A stretch of 64,000 nucleotides of DNA from Candidatus Kapaibacterium sp. (lineage in GTDB: Bacteria; Bacteroidota; Ignavibacteria; Kapaibacteriales; UBA2268): the NCBI GenBank assembly GCA_963665665.1, contig OY762428.1:2592001-2656000 (forward strand), in the 5' to 3' direction. This document shows positions 1 to 10,124 of the stretch, piece by piece. Each line of letters starts with the position of its first letter. Position 1 is the first letter of the stretch. The notes below the pieces were generated by a model. It was not told where the DNA came from. It was given only the letters and a program-made list of their open reading frames with translations, and made no database searches. Position numbers and translations under genes: made by a program.

Positions 1-700
1 TAGCAATCGACTTGGTGCGGGAAACAGTCAGGATAATATCTTCAGCCGGAACTGAAGCGCCCAGGTAAACAGGCCTGAATCCATGAATTGATATAAGGGC
101 TGCTATGGCAAGCCCTGCAAGCTCGTGGTTCTGGTTCACCGGAGAGGCAATTACAACAGGTGGCGCGCTGTCAGTTGTACTGTTGTCGATTATTGATCCC
201 AGGGAATTTCTAATCATTGCCGAGGCGAAATGCTCGTTTGAAATTCTCAACTCGCCACTTTCCCAGCGATTCCCGATTTCTTTAAGCAGGGGTAGGATGA
301 ACATTATTATATAGTCAGTCCTTGATAATTTTATCAGCATAGAATCAAGTATATTTTTTAAGCCGGCCGAATTAAAATTTTTGACAGCTTCAATGGCATC
401 ATTTATACTATTATTGTTATCAGATTGATCAGAAGCAACATTTTCTCTGCTATTTTCTACAATTTCGCTGATCTCGTCAACAGACATCCGGGCAAGTTCA
501 CCAATCTTGAAACCATTACTTATTGCATCCCTAATAAGCAGGAGCTTGTTCAGATCATCATCCGAATACATACGCCTGTTTGTTTCTGTCCTTACCGGAT
601 TAATAATATTATACCTGTTTTCCCATGTTCTGAGCAACAACTGGCTCAACCCCGTCTTGTTCGAGATATATTTAATCGGATATTTTAAATCACTTTCCAT
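1..700 (-). CDS. MerR-family regulator with cobalamin-binding domain (CarH/LitR-like B12 photoreceptor); 3' end outside window
   Basis: Hand translation from ATG at 700: MESDLKYPIKYISNKTGLSQLLLRTWENRY...TETNRRMYS (MerR HTH, RxWExRY), then IGNRWESGELRISNEHFAS (W-x9-EH motif of CarH) and NHELAG (B12 His ligand motif). Open to the window edge, so absent from the ORF track. Confidence 0.9.
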   Translation of the reverse strand, partial: MESDLKYPIKYISNKTGLSQLLLRTWENRYNIINPVRTETNRRMYSDDDLNKLLLIRDAISNGFKIGELARMSVDEISEIVENSRENVASDQSDNNNSINDAIEAVKNFNSAGLKNILDSMLIKLSRTDYIIMFILPLLKEIGNRWESGELRISNEHFASAMIRNSLGSIIDNSTTDSAPPVVIASPVNQNHELAGLAIAALISIHGFRPVYLGASVPAEDIILTVSRTKSIA

Positions 701-718
701 ATTAATTTGCTATAAATT

Positions 719-923
719 TATACACAAAATCCATTTTCTATACAGACGCTTTACAAAGTTAATAATTTTTTTTAAATTTTTTATAAAATCTATACAATAA
801 CTATACAATGCTTTCGTTCTTCATTACAAGTTCATTGACAAATTAATTGAAAAGCAATAAAATTAAAGGGTTTTATTAGCAATATAAAAAAAATCAAACA
901 AGAACATGTATAGAATTTGTATA
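719..923. promoter_or_regulatory. Candidate CarH operator repeats (TnnACA, 11-bp period) in divergent promoter region
   Basis: TATACA 739 / TTTACA 750; TATACA 791 / TATACA 802 / TTGACA 835 (802+33); opposite strand TGTATA 907 / TGTATA 918; extra TATACA at 719. Confidence 0.7.
835..863 (+). promoter_or_regulatory. Sigma70-type promoter for the small-gene array
   Basis: TTGACA (835-840), 17-nt spacer, TAAAAT (858-863). Confidence 0.65.
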
Positions 924-952
924 ATTTATAATTTATAATGAAGGAGACAGAA

Positions 953-1123
953 ATGTCATCAATAAGCGAAATCAAAAGCCGCATATCAGTAAAATGGATC
1001 AAAGCAGAATCAGGAAACACATACCTTTGCCCGGCAAATGTGATGGAAAAACTTGACAACCCGACAGAAGAAGATCTTATGAGGTACTGTGTGAACGAAT
1101 CCGAAAATCCGCAGAACGACTAA
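953..1123 (+). CDS. Small protein, tandem copy 1 (56 aa)
   Basis: RBS AAGGAG then ATG 953; MSSISEIKSRISVKWIKAESGNTYLCPANVMEKLDNPTEEDLMRYCVNESENPQND. The ORF track starts it at 938. Confidence 0.85.
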   Translation: MSSISEIKSRISVKWIKAESGNTYLCPANVMEKLDNPTEEDLMRYCVNESENPQND

Positions 1124-1173
1124 TAAAAAATTGAAACAAAAAAAATAAAATTATAATAATCAGGAGATACAAA

Positions 1174-1347
1174 ATGGATAGCAAAACAAGCGAAATCAAA
1201 AGCCGCATATCAGTAAAATGGATCAAAGCAGAATCAGGAAACACATACCTTTGCCCGGCAAATGTGATGGAAAAACTTGACAACCCGACAGAAGAAGAAC
1301 TTATAAGGTACTGTGTGAACGAATCCGAAAATCCGCAGAACGACTAA
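1174..1347 (+). CDS. Small protein, tandem copy 2 (57 aa)
   Basis: CAGGAG RBS; MDSKTSEIKSR...TEEELIRYCVNESENPQND, stop TAA. Confidence 0.85.
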   Translation: MDSKTSEIKSRISVKWIKAESGNTYLCPANVMEKLDNPTEEELIRYCVNESENPQND

Positions 1348-1397
1348 TAAAAAATTGAAACAAAAAAAATAAAATTATAATAATCAGGAGATACAAA

Positions 1398-1571
1398 ATG
1401 GATAGCAAAACAAGCGAAATCAAAAGCCGCATATCAGTAAAATGGATCAAAGCAGAATCAGGAAACACATACCTTTGCCCGGCAAATGTGATGGAAAAAC
1501 TTGATAATCCGACAGAAGAAGACCTTATGAGGTACTGCGTGAACGAATCCGAAAACCCGCAGAACGACTAA
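1398..1571 (+). CDS. Small protein, tandem copy 3 (57 aa)
   Basis: CAGGAG RBS; MDSKT...TEEDLMRYC...PQND. Confidence 0.85.
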   Translation: MDSKTSEIKSRISVKWIKAESGNTYLCPANVMEKLDNPTEEDLMRYCVNESENPQND

Positions 1572-1622
1572 TAAAAAAATTGAAACAAAAAATATAAAAT
1601 TATATTAATCAGGAGATACAAA

Positions 1623-1796
1623 ATGGAAAGCAAAACAAGCGAAATTAAAAGCCGCATATCAGTAAAATGGATCAAAGCAGAATCAGGAAACACATACCTT
1701 TGCCCGGCAAGTGTGATGGAAAAACTTGACAACCCGACAGAAGAAGAACTTATGAGGTACTGCGTGAACGAATCCGAAAACCCGCAGAACGACTAA
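1623..1796 (+). CDS. Small protein, tandem copy 4 (57 aa)
   Basis: CAGGAG RBS; MESKT...CPASVMEK...TEEELMRYC...PQND. Confidence 0.85.
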   Translation: MESKTSEIKSRISVKWIKAESGNTYLCPASVMEKLDNPTEEELMRYCVNESENPQND

Positions 1797-1847
1797 TAAA
1801 AAAATTGAAACAAAAAATATAAAATTATAATAATCAGGAGATACAAA

Positions 1848-2021
1848 ATGGAAAGCAAAACAAGCGAAATTAAAAGCCGCATATCAGTAAAATGGATCAA
1901 AGCAGAATCAGGAAACACATACCTTTGTCCGGCAAATGTGATGGAAAAACTTGACAACCCGACAGAAGAAGAACTTATGAGGTACTGTGTGAACGAATCC
2001 GAAAACCCGCAGAACGACTAA
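1848..2021 (+). CDS. Small protein, tandem copy 5 (57 aa)
   Basis: CAGGAG RBS; MESKT...TEEELMRYC...PQND. Confidence 0.85.
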   Translation: MESKTSEIKSRISVKWIKAESGNTYLCPANVMEKLDNPTEEELMRYCVNESENPQND

Positions 2022-2066
2022 TAAAAAAATTGAAAAAAAATTAAATTATAATAATCAGGAGTTAAC

Positions 2067-2240
2067 ATGGAAAGCAAAACAAGCGAAATTAAAAGCCGCA
2101 TATCAGTAAAATGGATCAAAGCAGAATCAGGAAATACATACCTTTGCCCGGCAAATGTGATGGAAAAACTTGACAACCCGACAGAAGAAGAACTTATGAG
2201 GTACTGCGTGAACGAATCCGAAAACCCGCAGAACGACTAA
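2067..2240 (+). CDS. Small protein, tandem copy 6 (57 aa)
   Basis: CAGGAG RBS; MESKT...TEEELMRYC...PQND. Confidence 0.85.
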   Translation: MESKTSEIKSRISVKWIKAESGNTYLCPANVMEKLDNPTEEELMRYCVNESENPQND

Positions 2241-2275
2241 AAACGAATGTCATACCTTTAAAAATATTGTTACCG

Positions 2276-2308
2276 AAAGAGGCTGCCAAACGACAGCCTC
2301 TTTTTTTA
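2276..2308 (+). terminator. Rho-independent terminator closing the six-gene array
   Basis: AAAGAGGCTG-loop-CAGCCTCTTT followed by a T run. Confidence 0.85.
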
Positions 2309-2330: not shown

Positions 2331-3053
2331 TCAGAAGGCAAAAACAAGTTTGAAGACATCACTCCAGTGAGTAATTGCCAGGCGATAGCCGAGGAAAGTA
2401 CCGAAACCAACAAAAGTAATACCGGCAAACTGCCTGATCCTTGTGATCATGTTAGTTGACATTCTTTCCTTAAAATGATTTACTATCCTGACAAGAGTTT
2501 GAAGCCAGACAAAATTACCTATACCAAATCCGAGAGCAAATCCCAATCCGGCAATAGTAGTGCTTTCAATCAGTTTGAATTCCTGAACGTTGAGTGTTAC
2601 ATAAGCTATTGACGGGAGAAATGTGGGATTAGGAAGATTAGTAAGGGAAAGAGCAATACCAAGAAGGAATGGCCCTCTTTTCATCAGGTTGTCTATGAAT
2701 TTCGGGTTGTTAGTTTTTAATTGTGTATCAAAATCAGCATCATTTGCGTCTTTCCGGGATTTAAGGTTCAATATTCCAAAAATTACCATCGCAAGAACAA
2801 TGGAGAGCTGAATAACAAACATGATGTAGGGATGATCAATTGAAAAACCACCTACAGCCGACATTGCCGCTTTTGTAGCAAACAAAGCAGCCAAACAATA
2901 AAACATATCTAATAATGCAGTTCCGAGAGCCATTTTAATTCCGGGCCGGATATTACCCAATAGCCCGTACTGAATGGCTGTTACGCCAATCGGCCCCGGA
3001 GGCATGGCCAGCACGAAACCAACCAAAAAACCAACAAGTATTGCAATAATCAC
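2331..3053 (-). CDS. LysE-family translocator
   Basis: N-terminal GFVLAMPPGP motif, LTNLPNP motif, six hydrophobic segments. Confidence 0.8.
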   Translation of the reverse strand: MIIAILVGFLVGFVLAMPPGPIGVTAIQYGLLGNIRPGIKMALGTALLDMFYCLAALFATKAAMSAVGGFSIDHPYIMFVIQLSIVLAMVIFGILNLKSRKDANDADFDTQLKTNNPKFIDNLMKRGPFLLGIALSLTNLPNPTFLPSIAYVTLNVQEFKLIESTTIAGLGFALGFGIGNFVWLQTLVRIVNHFKERMSTNMITRIRQFAGITFVGFGTFLGYRLAITHWSDVFKLVFAF

Positions 3054-3466
3054 ATGCGCCTCGATTAATCCAACATAATCGCAGGGCAGCGCAAAGTATT
3101 TGTTTTCAATCTATTATCAATCAAGCTTAGTGTCAGTGTCCTTTATCTTTTCGTCAGCCTTTCCTTCAAAGAACAGGCTTTTATCTCCGCTAAAACAAAA
3201 CTGCCCTATCAAAAAAATAGTTAGATAGTTATTATATCAATGTTCGAAAATTGCACAAGTGTGCAAATAATTACACACAATCTACGAAAAGCTTACTAAA
3301 TATCCAAAAAAATGTCTTCTTCCACCTATTTAGATTATTAGCTGATACTAAACATTGCTATTTGAAATATATCAAAAAAAATGAAAAAAAATTGCTAAAG
3401 TTTATATACTTTAATGCCGAGACTATAAACGGGTATTTGTATCTGTATTTTAATTTGTGGAATAAT

Positions 3467-4342
3467 TTGTTCGAAACCGGAAACATAGAAGCAATCATTC
3501 AACCTACTTTCACAAAGCCAATAAGTGAAAGCAGGGAGAACTCTTTATACAGGAATTATCTTAATGATTCTGACGGCCGGGAGAATAACACAAAACAGCA
3601 GGACAGATTCACTCCTTCATCCGCCGACAGGAGTATGGATGATTATACTAAATTGATAAAACAAAACCTGGGAAATCCTGTTCCCGTCAATGAAACATCC
3701 ACGGATGAAGCAGAAAGACAGGCCGGAAATAATTCCGAAAAAACATCATCTGCTAACAACGAAAATACGAAAAATGCTTCTTCTACCGACGGATTAACTG
3801 ATGAAGAAAGAGCCGAGGTAAGAGAATTGCAGCAAACAGATGCCGAAGTAAAGGCCCATGAATCTGCTCACATTGCTGCCGGGGGCAGCCTTGTTCGTGG
3901 CGGTGCCAGTTTCGAGTACCAAAAAGGGCCTGACGGAAAGCAATATGCAGTGGGTGGAGAAGTTCATATTGATATTAGTAAGGTTAGTGGCGATCCTGAA
4001 GCAACTATCAGAAAAATGCAGAAGGTAAGAACGGCCGCTTTAGCACCCGCCGATCCTTCTTCGCAGGACAGGATGGTTGCGGCACGTGCTTCCTCGATTG
4101 AGGCGCAGGCAAGAACCGAGCTGTCCAAACAAAGGGCGGAAGCGAGTCAATCCACAAATGATACAAATAATATCAATTTTGATAATCGTGGAAAATCGTC
4201 GGAAAACAGTAATTCCCAAAAGGCCAATTCCGAATCATCAACACCCTCAATTTATCAAGGCTCCGGCGTAGAAAGCCTGGATGTGTACCTAAAGGCCCAA
4301 AAAGAAAATCAATTACCAGGATATGTAAACCGCACTGCCTGA
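3467..4342 (+). CDS. SprA-related family protein (putative metalloprotease, CJM1_0395-like)
   Basis: EVKAHESAH...YQKGPDGKQYAVGGEVHID...ALAPADPSSQD signature. Start uncertain: TTG 3467 chosen, frame open from 3251. Confidence 0.8.
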   Translation: MFETGNIEAIIQPTFTKPISESRENSLYRNYLNDSDGRENNTKQQDRFTPSSADRSMDDYTKLIKQNLGNPVPVNETSTDEAERQAGNNSEKTSSANNENTKNASSTDGLTDEERAEVRELQQTDAEVKAHESAHIAAGGSLVRGGASFEYQKGPDGKQYAVGGEVHIDISKVSGDPEATIRKMQKVRTAALAPADPSSQDRMVAARASSIEAQARTELSKQRAEASQSTNDTNNINFDNRGKSSENSNSQKANSESSTPSIYQGSGVESLDVYLKAQKENQLPGYVNRTA

Positions 4343-4491
4343 AAGAATTTATTTTACTTGCATGTGATCAATAGTTTTTATAAAATCAATGCTGTTTGGA
4401 CAGTTTGGTTATTAATTTATATAAAAATAAATTATTGATAATATCCCGTTTATTTTTTAAGTTTAAACAAACAACAATAAGGGGAATTATT

Positions 4492-5535
4492 TTGTTTAAA
4501 CTGAAAACTATATTAATATTATCTCTGCTTTTTTACCCGACCTGCCACGAGTTGACGGCGTCGGAACCTGTTCCTGTTTTTACGGGTGTAATAAAGAAAA
4601 ACAGTACAGTGCCGGCGTTCGAGGTAAATGCTGTAATAAAATATCCCGAAATTACAAGAGTAGCGACGGAAATACCCGGCAAAGCAGATAAGGTTTTTAT
4701 TGAAGAAGGCCGTAAAGTCCGGGCGGGTGAAATTCTTGTGAAATTGAACAGCGATATTCTTGAAAAGGAACGGGAATCACAGCAAGCACTTTATGATGAG
4801 GAAGCGGCAAATAATGATATGTTGAAATGGGAACTTGAAAGATTCGACACACTGCTGCAGGCCGGTGATATTCCGCTAAGTAAGTTCAAATACAAAAAAG
4901 CTGAATTTTTAAAGAGCTCCGCCAGGCTTAGAAGCCTTGAAGCTGATCTTCAGAAAACAGCAATTATGATTGATAAAATGTCAGTACGCGCACCATTCAG
5001 CGGAATAATCACCTCAAAACCTATAAACGAAGGAAGCTGGGTGGAGAAGGGCAGTTCCGTTGCTGAAATTGCAGCAACAGATGTTGTTGATATAATTGCC
5101 TCGGTACCTGCCGGGAAAATCAATCTAATTCATCCCGGCAGCAAGGCTATTATAAAATGCGGTGATTCCGAGATAAATGCCGGTGTATTCTCTGTTCTGC
5201 CAAAAGGCGATCCGGATTCAAGGACTTTCCCGGTGATTATACGCATAAATAATGAAGCTAATCTGATGGGTGGAATGAATGCAAAAGCAATATTTACCCT
5301 GCCAGAATCCGACAATTCATTTATCATTTCCCGTGATGCCGTAATTAGCAGAAATGACAAATATTCTATATTTATTGCCGCCCAGGATAAAGCAAAACAA
5401 ATTGATATCAAAATAATTGAATGGGCAGGAAAAAATGTTATTGTAAAATCGCCCGAACTGAATGAATCAATGAAATTAATCATCAGGGGTAACCAGTTTT
5501 TAACTGACGGACAGGCTATAATTATTAAACGATAA
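4492..5535 (+). CDS. RND efflux periplasmic adaptor (MFP)
   Basis: EEGRKVRAGEILVKL, VRAPFSGII and DPDSRTFPV motifs; TTG 4492 follows AAGGGG. Confidence 0.9.
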   Translation: MFKLKTILILSLLFYPTCHELTASEPVPVFTGVIKKNSTVPAFEVNAVIKYPEITRVATEIPGKADKVFIEEGRKVRAGEILVKLNSDILEKERESQQALYDEEAANNDMLKWELERFDTLLQAGDIPLSKFKYKKAEFLKSSARLRSLEADLQKTAIMIDKMSVRAPFSGIITSKPINEGSWVEKGSSVAEIAATDVVDIIASVPAGKINLIHPGSKAIIKCGDSEINAGVFSVLPKGDPDSRTFPVIIRINNEANLMGGMNAKAIFTLPESDNSFIISRDAVISRNDKYSIFIAAQDKAKQIDIKIIEWAGKNVIVKSPELNESMKLIIRGNQFLTDGQAIIIKR

Positions 5536-5541
5536 TAAATC

Positions 5542-8500
5542 ATGAAACTGATCGAATCATCCATAAAAAATCCGATTCCGGTATTTACAACAATATTCCT
5601 TGTTTTTGTACTCGGAATAATCAGTTTTATTAATATGCCATATCAATTAACTCCGTCGGTTGATGAGCCTATGGTTTCGGTTTTTACGGAATGGCCCGGC
5701 GCAACTCCGCATGAAGTGGAAAGAGAAATTATTGAGGAGCAGGAAAAGGTTTTGATAGGTATCCCCGGAATGATTGAAATGGAAAGCTCTGCCAATAACG
5801 GGAATGGCCTGGTTGACCTGACTTTCGAGATTGGTACTGATGTTGACCAGGCAATGAACCGTGTTTCGAATAAACTTAATGAAGTGCCATATTACCCCGA
5901 AAATGTAGAAAATCCTGTTGTGAAAAGATCAGGCGAAAGCCAGGCGCCAAAGATATGGATGGTTCTCAGCACACTTGATGATAATAACAGAGATATTAAT
6001 ACATATCGTTCTTATCTCGAGGACGAACTTCTTCCCGAACTTCTTTCAATTGACGGTGTGGCTGATATTGTTTTATTCGGTGGCGCAAAATCCCAAATGG
6101 AAGTTGTAGTTGATTTACAAAAGCTTGCATCCTATGGAATAACGATTAGCCGGTTGATACAAATTCTGAAAAATGAGAATGTGAATATTTCAGCAGGTAT
6201 TCAGCAGGTCGGAGCAAAAGATTATCGTATCAGGACAACAGCCCAGTTCGCATCCCCGGAAGGCCTCGCCAATACAGTACTATTCTCTGACAGCTCGCGG
6301 ACGGTTTACCTGCATGATGTTGCTTTTGTTAAGGAGGGTATTGCCAGGCTTAAAACATATTTCAGGTTCGACAGAATGAAAGACCTCGGCCCGGAAGATT
6401 CCCTTGCAGCCCTGAACAGCCCAAGATACAAGATCGTCTCCGCGAAAAATGGTAAAAACCGATGGCATAAAATGGTTGCCGGGCTTGATATTGGAGTGAA
6501 GGCAGAAGCTGATGCCAATATTATTGAACTAACGGATAAACTTGGCCAGCAGGTCGAAAAACTGAATAGCCGGGTATTGCAAAAAGAAGGGCTTTTCCTT
6601 GAAATAGTTTATGATGAAAGAAGCTATCCACTTGCAGCCCTTTCAATAGTCGAGGACAACATTATTTTCTCCTGTATTCTTGCAGTCAGTATATTATTTA
6701 TTTTCCTCAGGAATTTCTCATCTACGTCAATAGTTGCATTTGTTATACCGGTTACCATTGTCAGCACTTTTATCATGATGTATTTTCTCGGCCTTTCGCT
6801 GAATGTAGTAAGCCTTGCCGGAATATCATTTGCAGTTGGTATGCTTATCGACAACTCCATTGTAGTTATTGAAAATATCGAGAGGAACAAATCTCTTGGG
6901 AAATCATTATTTCAATCCTCAGTTGACGGCGCCAGGCAGGTCTGGCCTGCAGTACTGGCATCCACGCTGACAACGGTTGCCGTTTTCCTTCCGGTAGTTT
7001 TCCTTAAGCAGGAAGCAGGGCAGCTGTTCCGGGATATATCAATAGCAGTGTCAACAGCTACATTGCTCAGCCTGTTTGCATCTGTGATAGTTATTCCCGT
7101 ATTGGTTCATTTCTTTGATTTCAAAAAAATCAGAAAAGCAATAAAATTCCCTTATCATAAAAAATTAAAAAGTTCTTTCAATAATTCAATCGAAAATATC
7201 GGCAACAGGATTTTTTCTTTCTTTGAAAGGTCCCTGGAATTCAGCCTAAAAAACAGGATTAGAAGGCTTGGGATTATAATTTCCATATTAATATGTACTA
7301 TTTTAATTGCTCTTTTTCTTATTCCCGATATGGAATATTTGCCTCAGGGAAACAGAAATTTTCTACTGAATATTATTATTCCGCCGGCCGGAACCTCTTA
7401 CGACGAAAGAGAACAATTTGCCGATCACTTCTTTAAGGAACTGGAACCCTATTTCGGAGTTGATAAAGACGGATTTCCATCTATAGAATATACTTTTATT
7501 GTCGGGGGCGAGGACCTGATATTCTGCGGTGCGCAAACCACTGACGAGGAAAGATGCGGAGAACTTGTTCCGCTATATTCACGTGTGGCCAATTCATACC
7601 CAGGAATATTCGGTATCAGTATGCAAAGCGGAATATTTCAGAACAGGCTGGGCAGATCAAGGACGGTAAGCTTGGATATAAGCGGCGGCGAGCAGGATGA
7701 AATATTGAAAGTAGCAGGCATTCTTATGAATGAAAAGATACCTGCTGTTTTAAAGAATTCACAGATCAGGGCCGTACCATCGCTCGACGTTTCTTATCCG
7801 GAAGTAAGATTTATTCCCAAAAGGGAAGCCCTCGCGGCAAACAGATTAAGCTCGGATGATTTCGGGAAATTAGTTGACGTTATGCTGGACGGAAGAAAAA
7901 TCGGAGATTATAAAGAGGAAGGCAGAAAAAAAATTGATTTCGTGGTTAAATGTTCAAGGTCGGATATAAGGGGCCCGGAAGATATTTATTCTGCAATAGT
8001 ACCACTGCCGGGCGGCAAATCCGTAAACCTGTTTGAACTGGCCAATATGGACAAAACATTCGGCCTGACCCAAATACGCCATTTGAATACGAAAAGAACA
8101 GTTACGCTTGAAGTTAACCTGCCGCAGGAAATACCTCTTGAGCAGGCTATTAACAAAATAAATGACAATATTATTCCCGAAATGCGTAATGAGGGATTAC
8201 TGGACAATGTAGAGATCAGTTCAAGCGGAAATTCCGGTAAATTTACTGAAACAAAACAGGCGCTAAAGTGGAATATTATCATTGCAGTAATAATATTATA
8301 TTTCATCATGGCAATAATTTTCAAGCATTTCCTCTACCCGGTAATCGTGATGATAAACGTGCCTTTAGCCCTTGCCGGAGGTTTTATCGGGCTGAAATTT
8401 GCGAATATACTTGTCGCCCCTACAGCCTTTGATATTATGACGATTCTTGGATTTATCATGCTTATCGGTATGGTGGTAAACAACCCGATATTGATCATTC

Positions 8501-8763
8501 ATCAGTCGCTGTTGAATATTAAGTCCGGAGGTATGAATTACCGGGATGCCGTTATTGATGCCGTCCTGAGCAGGATAAAACCAATTTACATGAGTGTGCT
8601 TACCACATTTTTCGGGTTACTTCCATTAGTGCTTGCACCGGGAGCAGGTTCCGAGCTTTACCGAGGCCTTGGAAGCGTGGTTCTGTCCGGGCTTTTCATT
8701 TCAACATTTTTCACAGTCTATCTCGTTCCGGCTTTGCTTCTTCTTTTTGTAAAGAAAAGCTGA
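5542..8763 (+). CDS. RND efflux permease (AcrB/AcrD/AcrF family)
   Basis: 1073 aa; GMLIDNSIVVIENI, VNNPIL and RIKPIYMS motifs; 12-TM pattern. Confidence 0.95.
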   Translation: MKLIESSIKNPIPVFTTIFLVFVLGIISFINMPYQLTPSVDEPMVSVFTEWPGATPHEVEREIIEEQEKVLIGIPGMIEMESSANNGNGLVDLTFEIGTDVDQAMNRVSNKLNEVPYYPENVENPVVKRSGESQAPKIWMVLSTLDDNNRDINTYRSYLEDELLPELLSIDGVADIVLFGGAKSQMEVVVDLQKLASYGITISRLIQILKNENVNISAGIQQVGAKDYRIRTTAQFASPEGLANTVLFSDSSRTVYLHDVAFVKEGIARLKTYFRFDRMKDLGPEDSLAALNSPRYKIVSAKNGKNRWHKMVAGLDIGVKAEADANIIELTDKLGQQVEKLNSRVLQKEGLFLEIVYDERSYPLAALSIVEDNIIFSCILAVSILFIFLRNFSSTSIVAFVIPVTIVSTFIMMYFLGLSLNVVSLAGISFAVGMLIDNSIVVIENIERNKSLGKSLFQSSVDGARQVWPAVLASTLTTVAVFLPVVFLKQEAGQLFRDISIAVSTATLLSLFASVIVIPVLVHFFDFKKIRKAIKFPYHKKLKSSFNNSIENIGNRIFSFFERSLEFSLKNRIRRLGIIISILICTILIALFLIPDMEYLPQGNRNFLLNIIIPPAGTSYDEREQFADHFFKELEPYFGVDKDGFPSIEYTFIVGGEDLIFCGAQTTDEERCGELVPLYSRVANSYPGIFGISMQSGIFQNRLGRSRTVSLDISGGEQDEILKVAGILMNEKIPAVLKNSQIRAVPSLDVSYPEVRFIPKREALAANRLSSDDFGKLVDVMLDGRKIGDYKEEGRKKIDFVVKCSRSDIRGPEDIYSAIVPLPGGKSVNLFELANMDKTFGLTQIRHLNTKRTVTLEVNLPQEIPLEQAINKINDNIIPEMRNEGLLDNVEISSSGNSGKFTETKQALKWNIIIAVIILYFIMAIIFKHFLYPVIVMINVPLALAGGFIGLKFANILVAPTAFDIMTILGFIMLIGMVVNNPILIIHQSLLNIKSGGMNYRDAVIDAVLSRIKPIYMSVLTTFFGLLPLVLAPGAGSELYRGLGSVVLSGLFISTFFTVYLVPALLLLFVKKS

Positions 8764-8773
8764 ACAAATCCTT

Positions 8774-9370
8774 TTAAAAAGCGATAAACCCTGCAAGATG
8801 TTCAGCTTCTGTTAGATGAACCAAAATGCTGTCGTCAACAAGTGTCTGTACAGCTTCCTTGGCTTCGGGTACACTTATTTTGTGCTTATATGCAAAATGC
8901 CATATATCGATAGCATCAATTGATATTTCAAGCGCGAGCATTTGTGCATTGGTAAGCTCTTTTTTATCCATGAATCGCTTCTGAACGGATTCAATATAGA
9001 ACTTTGCCTCTTTGTCCACAATATGAGCCGGATCGAAATAATAGTTTTCCGCTTCGAGCAGGTCGCAAATCGGATACCCACGGCCGGTATTCTTTACAAG
9101 TAACGGCAGAAATGAAACTCCCACAACATAAGGTTCTTCTTCCGGATTGCCCCAAAGGTCATTCCATACCGGAGAGTCCGATTCCTTCAGCCATTCGAAA
9201 AAAGCCCTTTCTTTGCCGGGCAGCCTTATAAAATTTGTAGCGGCAAGATTTCTCGCAAGGAAATCTGCCGTTTCCTCATCTATACTATTAAAAATATCAT
9301 CAGGAAAATCTATCAGGCCGTTATCTTCCGATTCCTTCACGCACCATACAAGCAGATCATTTTTATCCAT
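8774..9370 (-). CDS. Hypothetical protein
   Basis: 198-aa ORF, ATG start, fills the gap between flanking genes. Confidence 0.75.
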   Translation of the reverse strand: MDKNDLLVWCVKESEDNGLIDFPDDIFNSIDEETADFLARNLAATNFIRLPGKERAFFEWLKESDSPVWNDLWGNPEEEPYVVGVSFLPLLVKNTGRGYPICDLLEAENYYFDPAHIVDKEAKFYIESVQKRFMDKKELTNAQMLALEISIDAIDIWHFAYKHKISVPEAKEAVQTLVDDSILVHLTEAEHLAGFIAF

Positions 9371-9489
9371 TTATTGCACCGATTCTATAAATTTCTAATT
9401 ATCAATAATATACAGACTACAAAAATAGGAATAATTTTTTTCAGTGAAAAATATTCATTGCATATTTCGGGAAAATGTGATAATTTTAC

Positions 9490-9507
9490 ATTGACTATTT
9501 ATTCAAT
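9490..9507. promoter_or_regulatory. Candidate TetR autoregulatory operator
   Basis: ATTGA-N8-TCAAT inverted repeat just upstream of the TetR start. Confidence 0.4.
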
Positions 9508-9524
9508 CAATAAATAATAGCATT

Positions 9525-10124
9525 ATGGCAAGAAATGAAAAACTAAATGAAAAAATGAAGGAAGCCAGCAGGCAGAAAATTCTGAGTGCTGCCCTGAAGC
9601 TTTTTGCAGAAAGAGGCCCGGCAGCAACAAAAATCGGTGATGTAGCACTGGAGGCAGGCGTCTCACACGGGTTGCTTTACCACTATTTCAATTCCAAGGA
9701 CCAGATATTTACAGAGCTTATCAGCACTGCTTTTGATAAGCTGATTGAGGCATCTGAGAATTTGAAATCTATGTCCATATCAGCAGGTGAAAAAATTGAA
9801 ATGGCAATGAGAACCCTGATCAATAATATTGAAGAGGACAATGTTTCTGTTAATTATCATCTTCTGGTTGCAAAAGCTTCATCATCTGAAAGAGTTCCCG
9901 GAAAAGTTAAAAAAATATTGAAAGAAAAATCAGCCATACCTTACAAACTGATTGCGGATATTTTCAGGGACGGGCAGGAAAGCGGCGAATTCAATAAATT
10001 TCCGGCAGAAGAACTTGCACTGATGTTCTGGACAACAATTAAGGGGCTTGCTATGCAGAAGGCATTTGCCGGCAAGGCATACAGATCGCCCAATCCGGAT
10101 ATAATAATGAGAATGTTTACTTAA
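9525..10124 (+). CDS. TetR/AcrR family transcriptional regulator
   Basis: ILSAALKLFAERG...VALEAGVSHGLLYHYFNSKDQI HTH. Confidence 0.93.
   Translation: MARNEKLNEKMKEASRQKILSAALKLFAERGPAATKIGDVALEAGVSHGLLYHYFNSKDQIFTELISTAFDKLIEASENLKSMSISAGEKIEMAMRTLINNIEEDNVSVNYHLLVAKASSSERVPGKVKKILKEKSAIPYKLIADIFRDGQESGEFNKFPAEELALMFWTTIKGLAMQKAFAGKAYRSPNPDIIMRMFT

Follow-up and report, generated by a model that had tools for sequence, protein, structure and literature searches.

Why would a bacterium keep six near-identical copies of a gene for a 57-residue protein directly opposite a putative light-sensing regulator? The question is raised by a stretch of 64,000 nucleotides (nt) from Candidatus Kapaibacterium sp. 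(assembly GCA_963665665.1, contig OY762428.1, positions 2,592,001 to 2,656,000 of the forward strand), hereafter the window. In it, six tandem copies of a gene for 56 or 57 amino acids (aa) recur on the plus strand (953-2240) with a period of 224-225 nt, divergent from a gene for a CarH-like regulator. A reading made from the sequence alone, hereafter the sequence-only reading, had described six tandem genes, each with its own ribosome-binding site, between one upstream promoter and one terminator and divergent from a MerR/B12-binding regulator; this layout is confirmed here, and promoter-like sites matching 10 of 12 consensus positions are noted in the spacers besides. On balance, and with some reserve, we favour the view that the product is a light-derepressed, dosage-amplified cytoplasmic dithiol protein that serves in thiol and peroxide (photo-oxidative) defence.

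The peptide belongs to an unnamed, widespread family. It is unmatched in Pfam-A (best DUF5817_CT, E 0.078, 13 bits against a cut-off of 29) and in NCBIfam (best E 0.13), and a sequence profile search of the PDB at E <= 10 gave four unrelated rows, the best at E 0.6. Searches with the peptide model gave nothing at E <= 0.001 in Foldseek against the PDB and a best Z of 2.8, with none at or above 5, in VIA-align wide. In the ESM Atlas the peptide matches only clusters named 'hypothetical protein', and distant family members have no Pfam match at E <= 0.05. The sequence-only reading, which did not recognise the family, is thus borne out by Pfam, NCBIfam, the PDB and the fold searches. A full-text literature search found no description of the small protein; such a search works by words, which cannot find an unnamed family, and supplementary regulon tables lay outside it.

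Homologues are nevertheless numerous. Thirty-two close ones of 50-72 aa were found, with 61-70% identity between the array peptide and members in other phyla, and a search of 1.84 billion proteins retrieved 132 representative clusters at E <= 1e-3, with few exceptions stand-alone proteins of 45-90 aa. Apparent fused forms were rejected: P0064, P0068, P0081, P0088, P0090, P0112 and P0164 have the look of gene-calling errors (chimeras or frameshifts), and P0163 was discounted as a repeat protein. The family signature, carried by stand-alone proteins of 50-60 aa, reads W-x-K...SG-x-T-Y-L-C-P ... L..x-C-V-(D/N)-E-S-x-N-P-Q-N tail, and 15 columns are invariant among the 32 homologues, including W16, K18, SGNTY, C27-P28, C47, V48, E50, S51 and P54. 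All six array copies hold every invariant column of alignments A1 and A4. The C-terminal part is the most conserved stretch of the family, and the two cysteines are its most persistent feature: A1 and A4 show no variation at C27 or C47, and 106 diverse rows keep both at 90% or more, a level that only G22 and L43 reach besides. Even a distant branch (VWVKDxxGNEYxCPxDALKDP..EEL.NCVDD), which is without the NPQN tail, retains both. The array peptide is acidic (pI 4.67, net charge -4.5), and its sequence has neither a hydrophobic N-terminus nor one that resembles a signal peptide. AlphaFold models built from 32 and from 106 rows agree in predicting a hairpin (14-18 with 24-28), helices at 29-34 and 40-46, and a short strand.

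What such a protein might do is suggested by the company it keeps. We compared 60 loci taken from a scan of one genome per species, spread over Acidobacteriota, Ignavibacteriota, Myxococcota, Latescibacterota, Zixibacteria, Planctomycetota and others; the small-protein gene is called X below. X is single-copy in 59 of the 60, the remaining locus (L055) having a second copy 1.5 kb on. In 44 loci the gene directly upstream of X, on its own strand, encodes a thioredoxin (median gap 63 nt), and in 40 the gene directly downstream encodes a peroxiredoxin with AhpC/TSA and 1-cysPrx_C domains (median gap 91 nt); both flank X in 39 and neither does in 15. Apart from those linked to CarH, the loci without either gene have unrelated, housekeeping neighbours. 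The peroxiredoxins of the cassette carry FVCP and VCPANW motifs, as in typical 2-Cys enzymes. Its thioredoxins (A3) are of a distinct type, in which the dipeptide of the CxxC motif varies (CDSC, CSAC, CNAC, CAPC), a near-invariant Cys stands five residues before CxxC (DCWAxWCxxC) and a C-terminal helix is conserved.

Because the usual home of the family is a thioredoxin-X-2-Cys-peroxiredoxin cassette, we read the small protein as a component of thiol-based peroxide or photo-oxidative defence. An oxidative-stress or thiol role is, on synteny and conservation, probable. Among the candidates of the sequence-only reading, a thiol sink gains support from the 39 flanked loci and the two near-invariant cysteines, and a CarS-like antirepressor and a pigment or cobalamin binder find none. 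A predicted complex of two peroxiredoxin chains, thioredoxin and small protein from locus L003 (A2, A3 and A4) scored 0.00, which we take neither for nor against binding.

The array itself is almost certainly real and coding. A direct-repeat search finds one family, six copies of a 257-nt unit at spacings of 224, 224, 225, 225 and 219 nt, and TRF reports a single array with a period of 225, 5.7 copies and 96% matches. CAGGAG occurs in every spacer, 5-8 nt ahead of the next ATG. Copy 1 has an alternative start at ATG 938 that would give 61 aa; it is probably 56 aa long, because AAGGAG (941-946) stands 6 nt 5' of ATG 953. Within the core (codons 6-57) the copies vary at 10 sites, of which seven are synonymous and three are replacements (N30S, D/E42, M/I44), all conservative. 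Under neutrality, with 30.3 synonymous and 125.7 non-synonymous sites, at least seven synonymous changes in ten would be expected with P = 0.0007. The copies are under purifying selection on the protein, as had been proposed from the pattern of codon changes.

The same reading had also held that the array is not an artefact of assembly. The genome is one contig of 5.46 Mb, 99.5% complete, and its peptide copies are these six only. Contigs from public runs are interrupted between 993 and 2211; the copy-spacer-copy junctions are matched exactly by short unitigs (1078-1174, 1149-1217 and 1542-1604), at 2-4.5x the depth of the flanks, and a second study yields flanks of about 98% identity and likewise junction unitigs. 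The read data support a tandem multi-copy locus, and in this part the claim stands; the count of six rests on the genome assembly, because no public contig spans the array. On the opposite strand (832-2289, minus), every repeat unit holds an antisense open reading frame (ORF) of 52-75 aa (MSSFSITFAGQRYVFPDSALIHF...), and similar ORFs lie opposite the peptide gene in GC-rich family loci. We read these ORFs as artefacts, mirror frames that follow from conservation of the coding strand.

The complete regulator gene encodes 299 aa (genome C1 2591801-2592700) and is the sole gene of its kind in the genome. Its product contains MerR_1 (1.8e-14), B12-binding_2 (1.1e-8) and B12-binding domains, and its top PDB relatives are T. 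thermophilus CarH structures (3whp/5c8d, E ~2e-23), with which the W...EH stretch and the axial His align without gaps. CarH proteins are marked by RxWERRY, by Wx9EH and by a B12 motif D/ExHx2G/P-x41-SxT/V-x22-27-GG that holds the axial His, and Wx9EH tells photoreceptor CarH from the B12-independent CarA (both in the excerpted text of PMC9304148). The regulator has a related recognition-helix motif in its helix-turn-helix (RTWENRY, 24-30) and an intact Wx9EH (WESGELRISNEH, 146-157) that aligns with the same motif of T. thermophilus CarH. In its B12 motif, QNHELA contains His192, aligned with the axial His of 5c8d, and is followed by S237-A-I 41 residues on and GG266 26 residues further, a spacing that fits. 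The regulator is therefore CarH-like, as first described. Because the genome encodes adenosyltransferases of the PduO and CobA types, the chromophore adenosylcobalamin (AdoCbl) can be made. Other characterised or CarH-like relatives, that of locus L006 aside, are only 27-32% identical to the regulator, and a single-protein search for its nearest relatives gave only two Bacillus-group loci (27-29% identity), which is uninformative.

Between the regulator and the array lies a candidate CarH-type operator. A CarH operator has the 11-bp unit nnnnTnnACAn three or four times in tandem over the -35 or -10 element (PMC9304148, in its excerpted text). Here the units read, in order, AATCTATACAA TAACTATACAA tgctttcgttc ttcattacaag TTCATTGACAA; three of the five follow the consensus, two are degenerate, and the last in the row contains the TTGACA of the promoter. 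The pattern was matched by 1 of 2000 shuffles of the intergenic region. Sites with at least three of five phased repeats occur eight times in the 5.46-Mb genome, both strands counted, and TATACAA-N4-TATACAA occurs once, at the array operator. The seven others lie at genome C1 77855, 267796, 1303985, 2741444, 3085243, 3158429 and 3331652; two of them, 267796(-) and 2741444(-), have three tandem repeats each in AT-rich, intergenic-looking DNA, and none of the seven is beside the two SQS_PSY genes of the genome. On present evidence, the array appears to be the regulator's one clear target in the genome. Light/B12 control of the array, which the sequence-only reading had proposed, is well founded as a prediction because a CarH-like regulator is paired with a CarH-type operator over the array's -35 element, and we regard CarH-type control as likely.

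Table 1. Features of the array locus, with positions counted from the first letter of the window
Feature	Position	Strand	Description
CarH-like regulator, N-terminal 233 codons	2..700	-	MerR helix-turn-helix + four-helix B12-binding_2 + Rossmann B12-binding
CarH-type operator candidate	787..841	+	five phased 11-bp units, DR-DR-dr-dr-DR
Sigma-70-like promoter, TTGACA-17-TAAAAT	835..863	+	11/12 matches; -35 inside last operator repeat
Copy 1	953..1123	+	56 aa from ATG 953; divergent N-terminus MSSIS
Copy 2	1174..1347	+	57 aa
Copy 3	1398..1571	+	57 aa
Copy 4	1623..1796	+	57 aa; N30S
Copy 5	1848..2021	+	57 aa
Copy 6	2067..2240	+	57 aa; protein identical to that of copy 5
Terminator-like hairpin (11 pairs) followed by T-run, closing the array	2275..2304	+	intrinsic-terminator-like

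By analogy with known CarH, whose AdoCbl-dependent oligomer binds DNA in the dark and disassembles in light, the regulator would in the dark bind AdoCbl, sit on the tandem 11-bp repeats covering the -35 element and repress the array; on illumination it would come off, and the small protein would then be made in a burst from a single transcript with six ribosome-binding sites. Peroxide or products of singlet oxygen may oxidise its two thiols, directly or via peroxiredoxin, and thioredoxin would re-reduce them. Judging from copy number only, the six-fold amplification may have arisen because the protein is needed here in large amounts, in which case it would act in proportion to its amount and not catalytically. 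The specific chemistry, relay or sink, is a doubtful matter and we offer it as a suggestion. Also tentative, though slightly less so, is the wider view that the small protein is a third component of a widespread thioredoxin-peroxiredoxin system, a dithiol relay or sacrificial thiol protein that has been wired independently to B12 photoreceptors in several lineages; in this genome it would have left the cassette and, in six copies, become a light-induced photoprotectant that works stoichiometrically. The protein would then take up oxidising equivalents from peroxiredoxin or from singlet-oxygen products, and a dedicated thioredoxin would recycle it.

Several observations weigh against an antioxidant, light-controlled role, and the first of them concern the array's own surroundings. 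The array adjoins neither a thioredoxin nor a peroxiredoxin gene, its neighbours being the regulator and a LysE-type gene; the best peroxiredoxin match of the genome is 42% identical and far off, and the thioredoxin matches (28-29%) lie elsewhere. Because such genes are not beside the array and the matches are remote, a strict partnership with the cassette's own thioredoxin and peroxiredoxin cannot hold here. The array copies moreover carry CVNES, a form shared with 8 of the 60 loci; none of these eight has a peroxiredoxin neighbour and three have CarH, as against 40 and 2, respectively, of the 52 CVDES loci. In a family tree of 64 rows, which omits the truncated L056 and L059, the six copies share a single clade with L035 (96/83) and group weakly (67/93) with eight other rows, and this 14-row group contains no peroxiredoxin-linked row. 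The distant branch comprises 49 loci (L154-L202), all from Desulfobacterota, and only one has a peroxiredoxin nearby. The confidence of the peptide model is middling (pLDDT 73 with 32 rows and 71.3 with 106), and two Cys per chain would fit the binding of a metal or cluster by a dimer as well. On the side of control, the operator departs from the consensus in two of its five units, and the B12 motif of the regulator, QxHxxA...SxI, carries Q, A and I where the canonical motif has D/E, G/P and T/V. Finally, although CarH is its top-scoring NCBIfam family, the regulator reaches 95.6 bits (E 3.1e-27) against an equivalog cut-off of 400 (NF052513); because of this shortfall we term it CarH-like and not an equivalog.

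The neighbours of the Desulfobacterota branch are of a different kind: flavin amine oxidase (7 loci), SDR, PNPOx-like, DUF1499 and ADP-ribosylglycohydrolase (6 each), SRPBCC (5), NUDIX and SOUL (4 each). Desulfobacterota are anaerobic sulfate reducers and syntrophs. This set of neighbours may resemble clusters for light or singlet-oxygen stress.

For the biochemistry, the main rival is that the protein binds a metal or cofactor as a dimer. Two chains would provide four Cys, or Cys plus the acidic tail, for Zn, Fe, an Fe-S cluster or a tetrapyrrole/cobalamin, and the protein would be a buffer, chaperone or sensor in oxidative or light stress. This would account for the fact that the whole superfamily keeps only two residues, both Cys, and for the CP motif and the invariant acidic C-terminus CV(D/N)ESxNPQN, and some neighbours do bind cofactors, namely CbiX/NUDIX in L058 and the haem-binding SOUL and PNPOx-like proteins of the Desulfobacterota branch. 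However, conservation covers no His and no Cys beyond the two, thiol-disulfide enzymes and not metal or cofactor genes predominate among the neighbours, and the fold and sequence searches listed no likeness to known metal-binding knuckles. We consider cofactor binding unlikely, and retain thiol-based defence as the preferred role.

A second rival concerns the signal: the regulator may sense the availability of B12, or something else, or the spacer promoters may drive the array constitutively, so that the link to light would be coincidental. Three spacers do contain weaker promoter-like sites (TTGAAA-18-AATAAT, 10/12 matches), because of which internal transcript starts may exist. The deviant B12 motif and the sub-threshold NCBIfam score would fit such a regulator, as would the targets that are missing: the photolyase FAD-binding domain was not found in the genome, and no operator-like site is near its SQS_PSY genes. 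An intact Wx9EH is nevertheless the mark of photoreceptor CarH (PMC9304148, in its excerpted text), the CarH-type operator overlaps the -35 element, and relatives of the regulator adjoin photolyase genes. Light-independent control therefore seems to us rather improbable, and derepression by light remains the control that we favour.

Is linkage to CarH, then, a trait of the family? The comparison loci speak against it. A CarH-like gene lies within 6 kb of X in only 5 of the 60 (L006, L052, L054, L055 and L058), and an operator-type site lies upstream in one (L006; 0 of 3000 control windows have one). In L006, a regulator 50% identical to that of the array is divergent from a thioredoxin-X-peroxiredoxin cassette, with three perfect tandem operator repeats (ATTATTTACAA TATTTATACAA TATTTATACAT) between them. 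General CarH control of the family is rejected because none of the other 59 loci has an operator site (at least three of five repeats) within 300 nt upstream of the thioredoxin or peptide gene. The missing linkage elsewhere, which the sequence-only reading had counted among the refuting results, refutes a general partnership of peptide and CarH, and not the regulation in the array's genome.

The remaining CarH-linked loci are diverse. In L055 the order is photolyase-CarH...DUF4397-X-DUF4397-X, with the DUF4397 and X pair tandemly duplicated; L058 reads CarH-CbiX/NUDIX-DUF4397-X and L052 CarH...SDR/DUF2867-fasciclin-X, and in L054 CarH is divergent from X. We also observed that X comes after a DUF4397 gene in CarH-linked Acidobacteriota loci (L055:5058-7710, also L058 and L060), that a gene for a 472-aa NAD(P)-binding SDR-DUF2867 fusion adjoins X in two CarH-linked loci (L006:6973-8391 and L052:3209-4627), and that a fasciclin-domain gene recurs in L052 and L025. 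In a Phycisphaeraceae metagenome-assembled genome, a 354-aa protein with B12-binding_2 and B12-binding domains, in which no helix-turn-helix was detected, is encoded 3.2 kb upstream of thioredoxin and X (L002:2226-3290, minus strand).

These loci also bear on the proposal that the small protein is a CarS-like antirepressor, or another direct partner, that binds the DNA-binding or B12 domain of the regulator and tunes derepression. The peptide is small, acidic and divergent from the regulator, and the five CarH-like genes within 6 kb, together with the one stand-alone B12-binding protein, are far above chance proximity. Myxococcus CarS is an SH3-like, all-beta mimic of operator DNA, known only from myxobacteria. 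Like CarS, the array peptide is a small acidic protein whose gene belongs to a light-response circuit under a CarH/CarA-type regulator, and CarS is mentioned as an antirepressor in the excerpted text of PMC9304148. The differences are larger: the peptide is predicted to form a beta-hairpin and two helices, its two Cys look essential, and most family members have no CarH neighbour, 55 of the 60 loci being without a CarH-like gene within 6 kb and most of them lying in the thioredoxin-X-peroxiredoxin arrangement. No precedent is stated for six copies of an antirepressor as the target of its own repressor. A CarS chain was listed by none of Foldseek, VIA-align and the PDB profile search, which does not exclude likeness. 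We judge an antirepressor very unlikely and return to the dithiol protein as the reading to be placed among known systems.

In the domain order of its regulator, the Wx9EH motif, the axial His and the divergent layout of regulator and target, the locus matches the CarH/LitR systems of T. thermophilus, M. xanthus and B. megaterium, as it does in the tandem 11-bp nnnnTnnACAn repeats over the -35 element (PMC9304148, in its excerpted text). It differs in its target, a six-copy small-protein operon and not carotenoid synthesis or photolyase. With the thioredoxin-dependent, typical 2-Cys peroxiredoxins (AhpC/Prx1) the small protein shares a Cys-Pro motif and a second invariant Cys; in its predicted structure, however, it has neither a thioredoxin nor a peroxiredoxin fold, and in the array's genome it stands without the cassette. 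To our knowledge, a third component of 57 aa is not part of the described thioredoxin-peroxiredoxin couple, and the full-text literature search brought up none. Dosage by copy number recalls, as an analogy only, the Hli/HLIP proteins of cyanobacteria and cyanophages, small light-induced protective proteins whose gene number is raised under high light stress. Hli proteins are membrane-spanning chlorophyll-binding helices, whereas the array protein, soluble and acidic, lacks any hydrophobic segment and bears no sequence relationship to them.

The neighbourhood of the array offers little further guidance. Downstream, the window encodes a LysE-type translocator, a SprA-related protein (PF12118, 2.3e-38), an HlyD/AcrB efflux pair and TetR (2331-3053, minus; 3251-4342, plus; 4396-10124), none of which has an evident link to the array in a domain scan; a type IX secretion system (T9SS) sorting domain is also present in the window. 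Tandem, multi-copy, short Cys-containing genes are typical of some sets of precursors of ribosomally synthesised and post-translationally modified peptides (RiPPs). With the LysE-type translocator and the HlyD/AcrB pump within 6.5 kb, the copies might be such precursors, or other secreted peptides, exported by these transporters. Yet a scan of 11 neighbouring window and genome proteins, which include LysE, SprA-related, HlyD, AcrB, TetR, hydrolase, T9SS cargo and SEC-C proteins, brought up no maturation enzyme. The whole chain, and above all its C-terminus, is conserved across phyla, unlike a conserved leader with a variable core, no signal peptide-like N-terminus is present, and 59 of the 60 other loci are single-copy, most of them in a thioredoxin-peroxiredoxin operon. 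An exported peptide is accordingly most improbable, and a cytoplasmic dithiol protein remains our choice.

How did the module arrive in this genome? By one housekeeping protein, the nearest named relative of the genome is a Candidatus Kapabacteria metagenome-assembled genome (74%), a group with which the T9SS sorting domain in the window agrees. A search of 40 relatives (24 from the same family, 16 from the same order) found the peptide in none and the regulator in one, at 27% identity. Because neither part is a trait of the lineage, the module probably came from outside and was then amplified at this site. Immediately before the window (genome C1 2585730-2591519) lie a gene for a SEC-C-motif protein and ORFs of 383, 317, 467 and 299 aa, which by eye include AAA-ATPase-like and peptidase-like proteins. 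Possibly this stretch is an island, and an acquired module would be in keeping with that.

CarH photoreceptors are chiefly known for switching carotenoid and photolyase genes. At this locus the switch is of the known CarH/LitR kind and its output, a small-protein operon of an uncharacterised family, is new; our full-text search of the literature found no CarH-controlled thioredoxin/peroxiredoxin or small-protein operon, supplementary regulon tables being outside that search. If the only recognisable target of a single CarH-like gene is indeed a small protein amplified six-fold, the known output of B12-based light sensing would be widened. The data further define an unnamed, strongly conserved two-Cys family within a thioredoxin-peroxiredoxin operon across many phyla. 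Since a small, soluble protein of this kind is readily produced, the idea that it belongs to an antioxidant system is directly testable; if true, a much-studied redox pathway would have a missing component in many uncultured bacteria.

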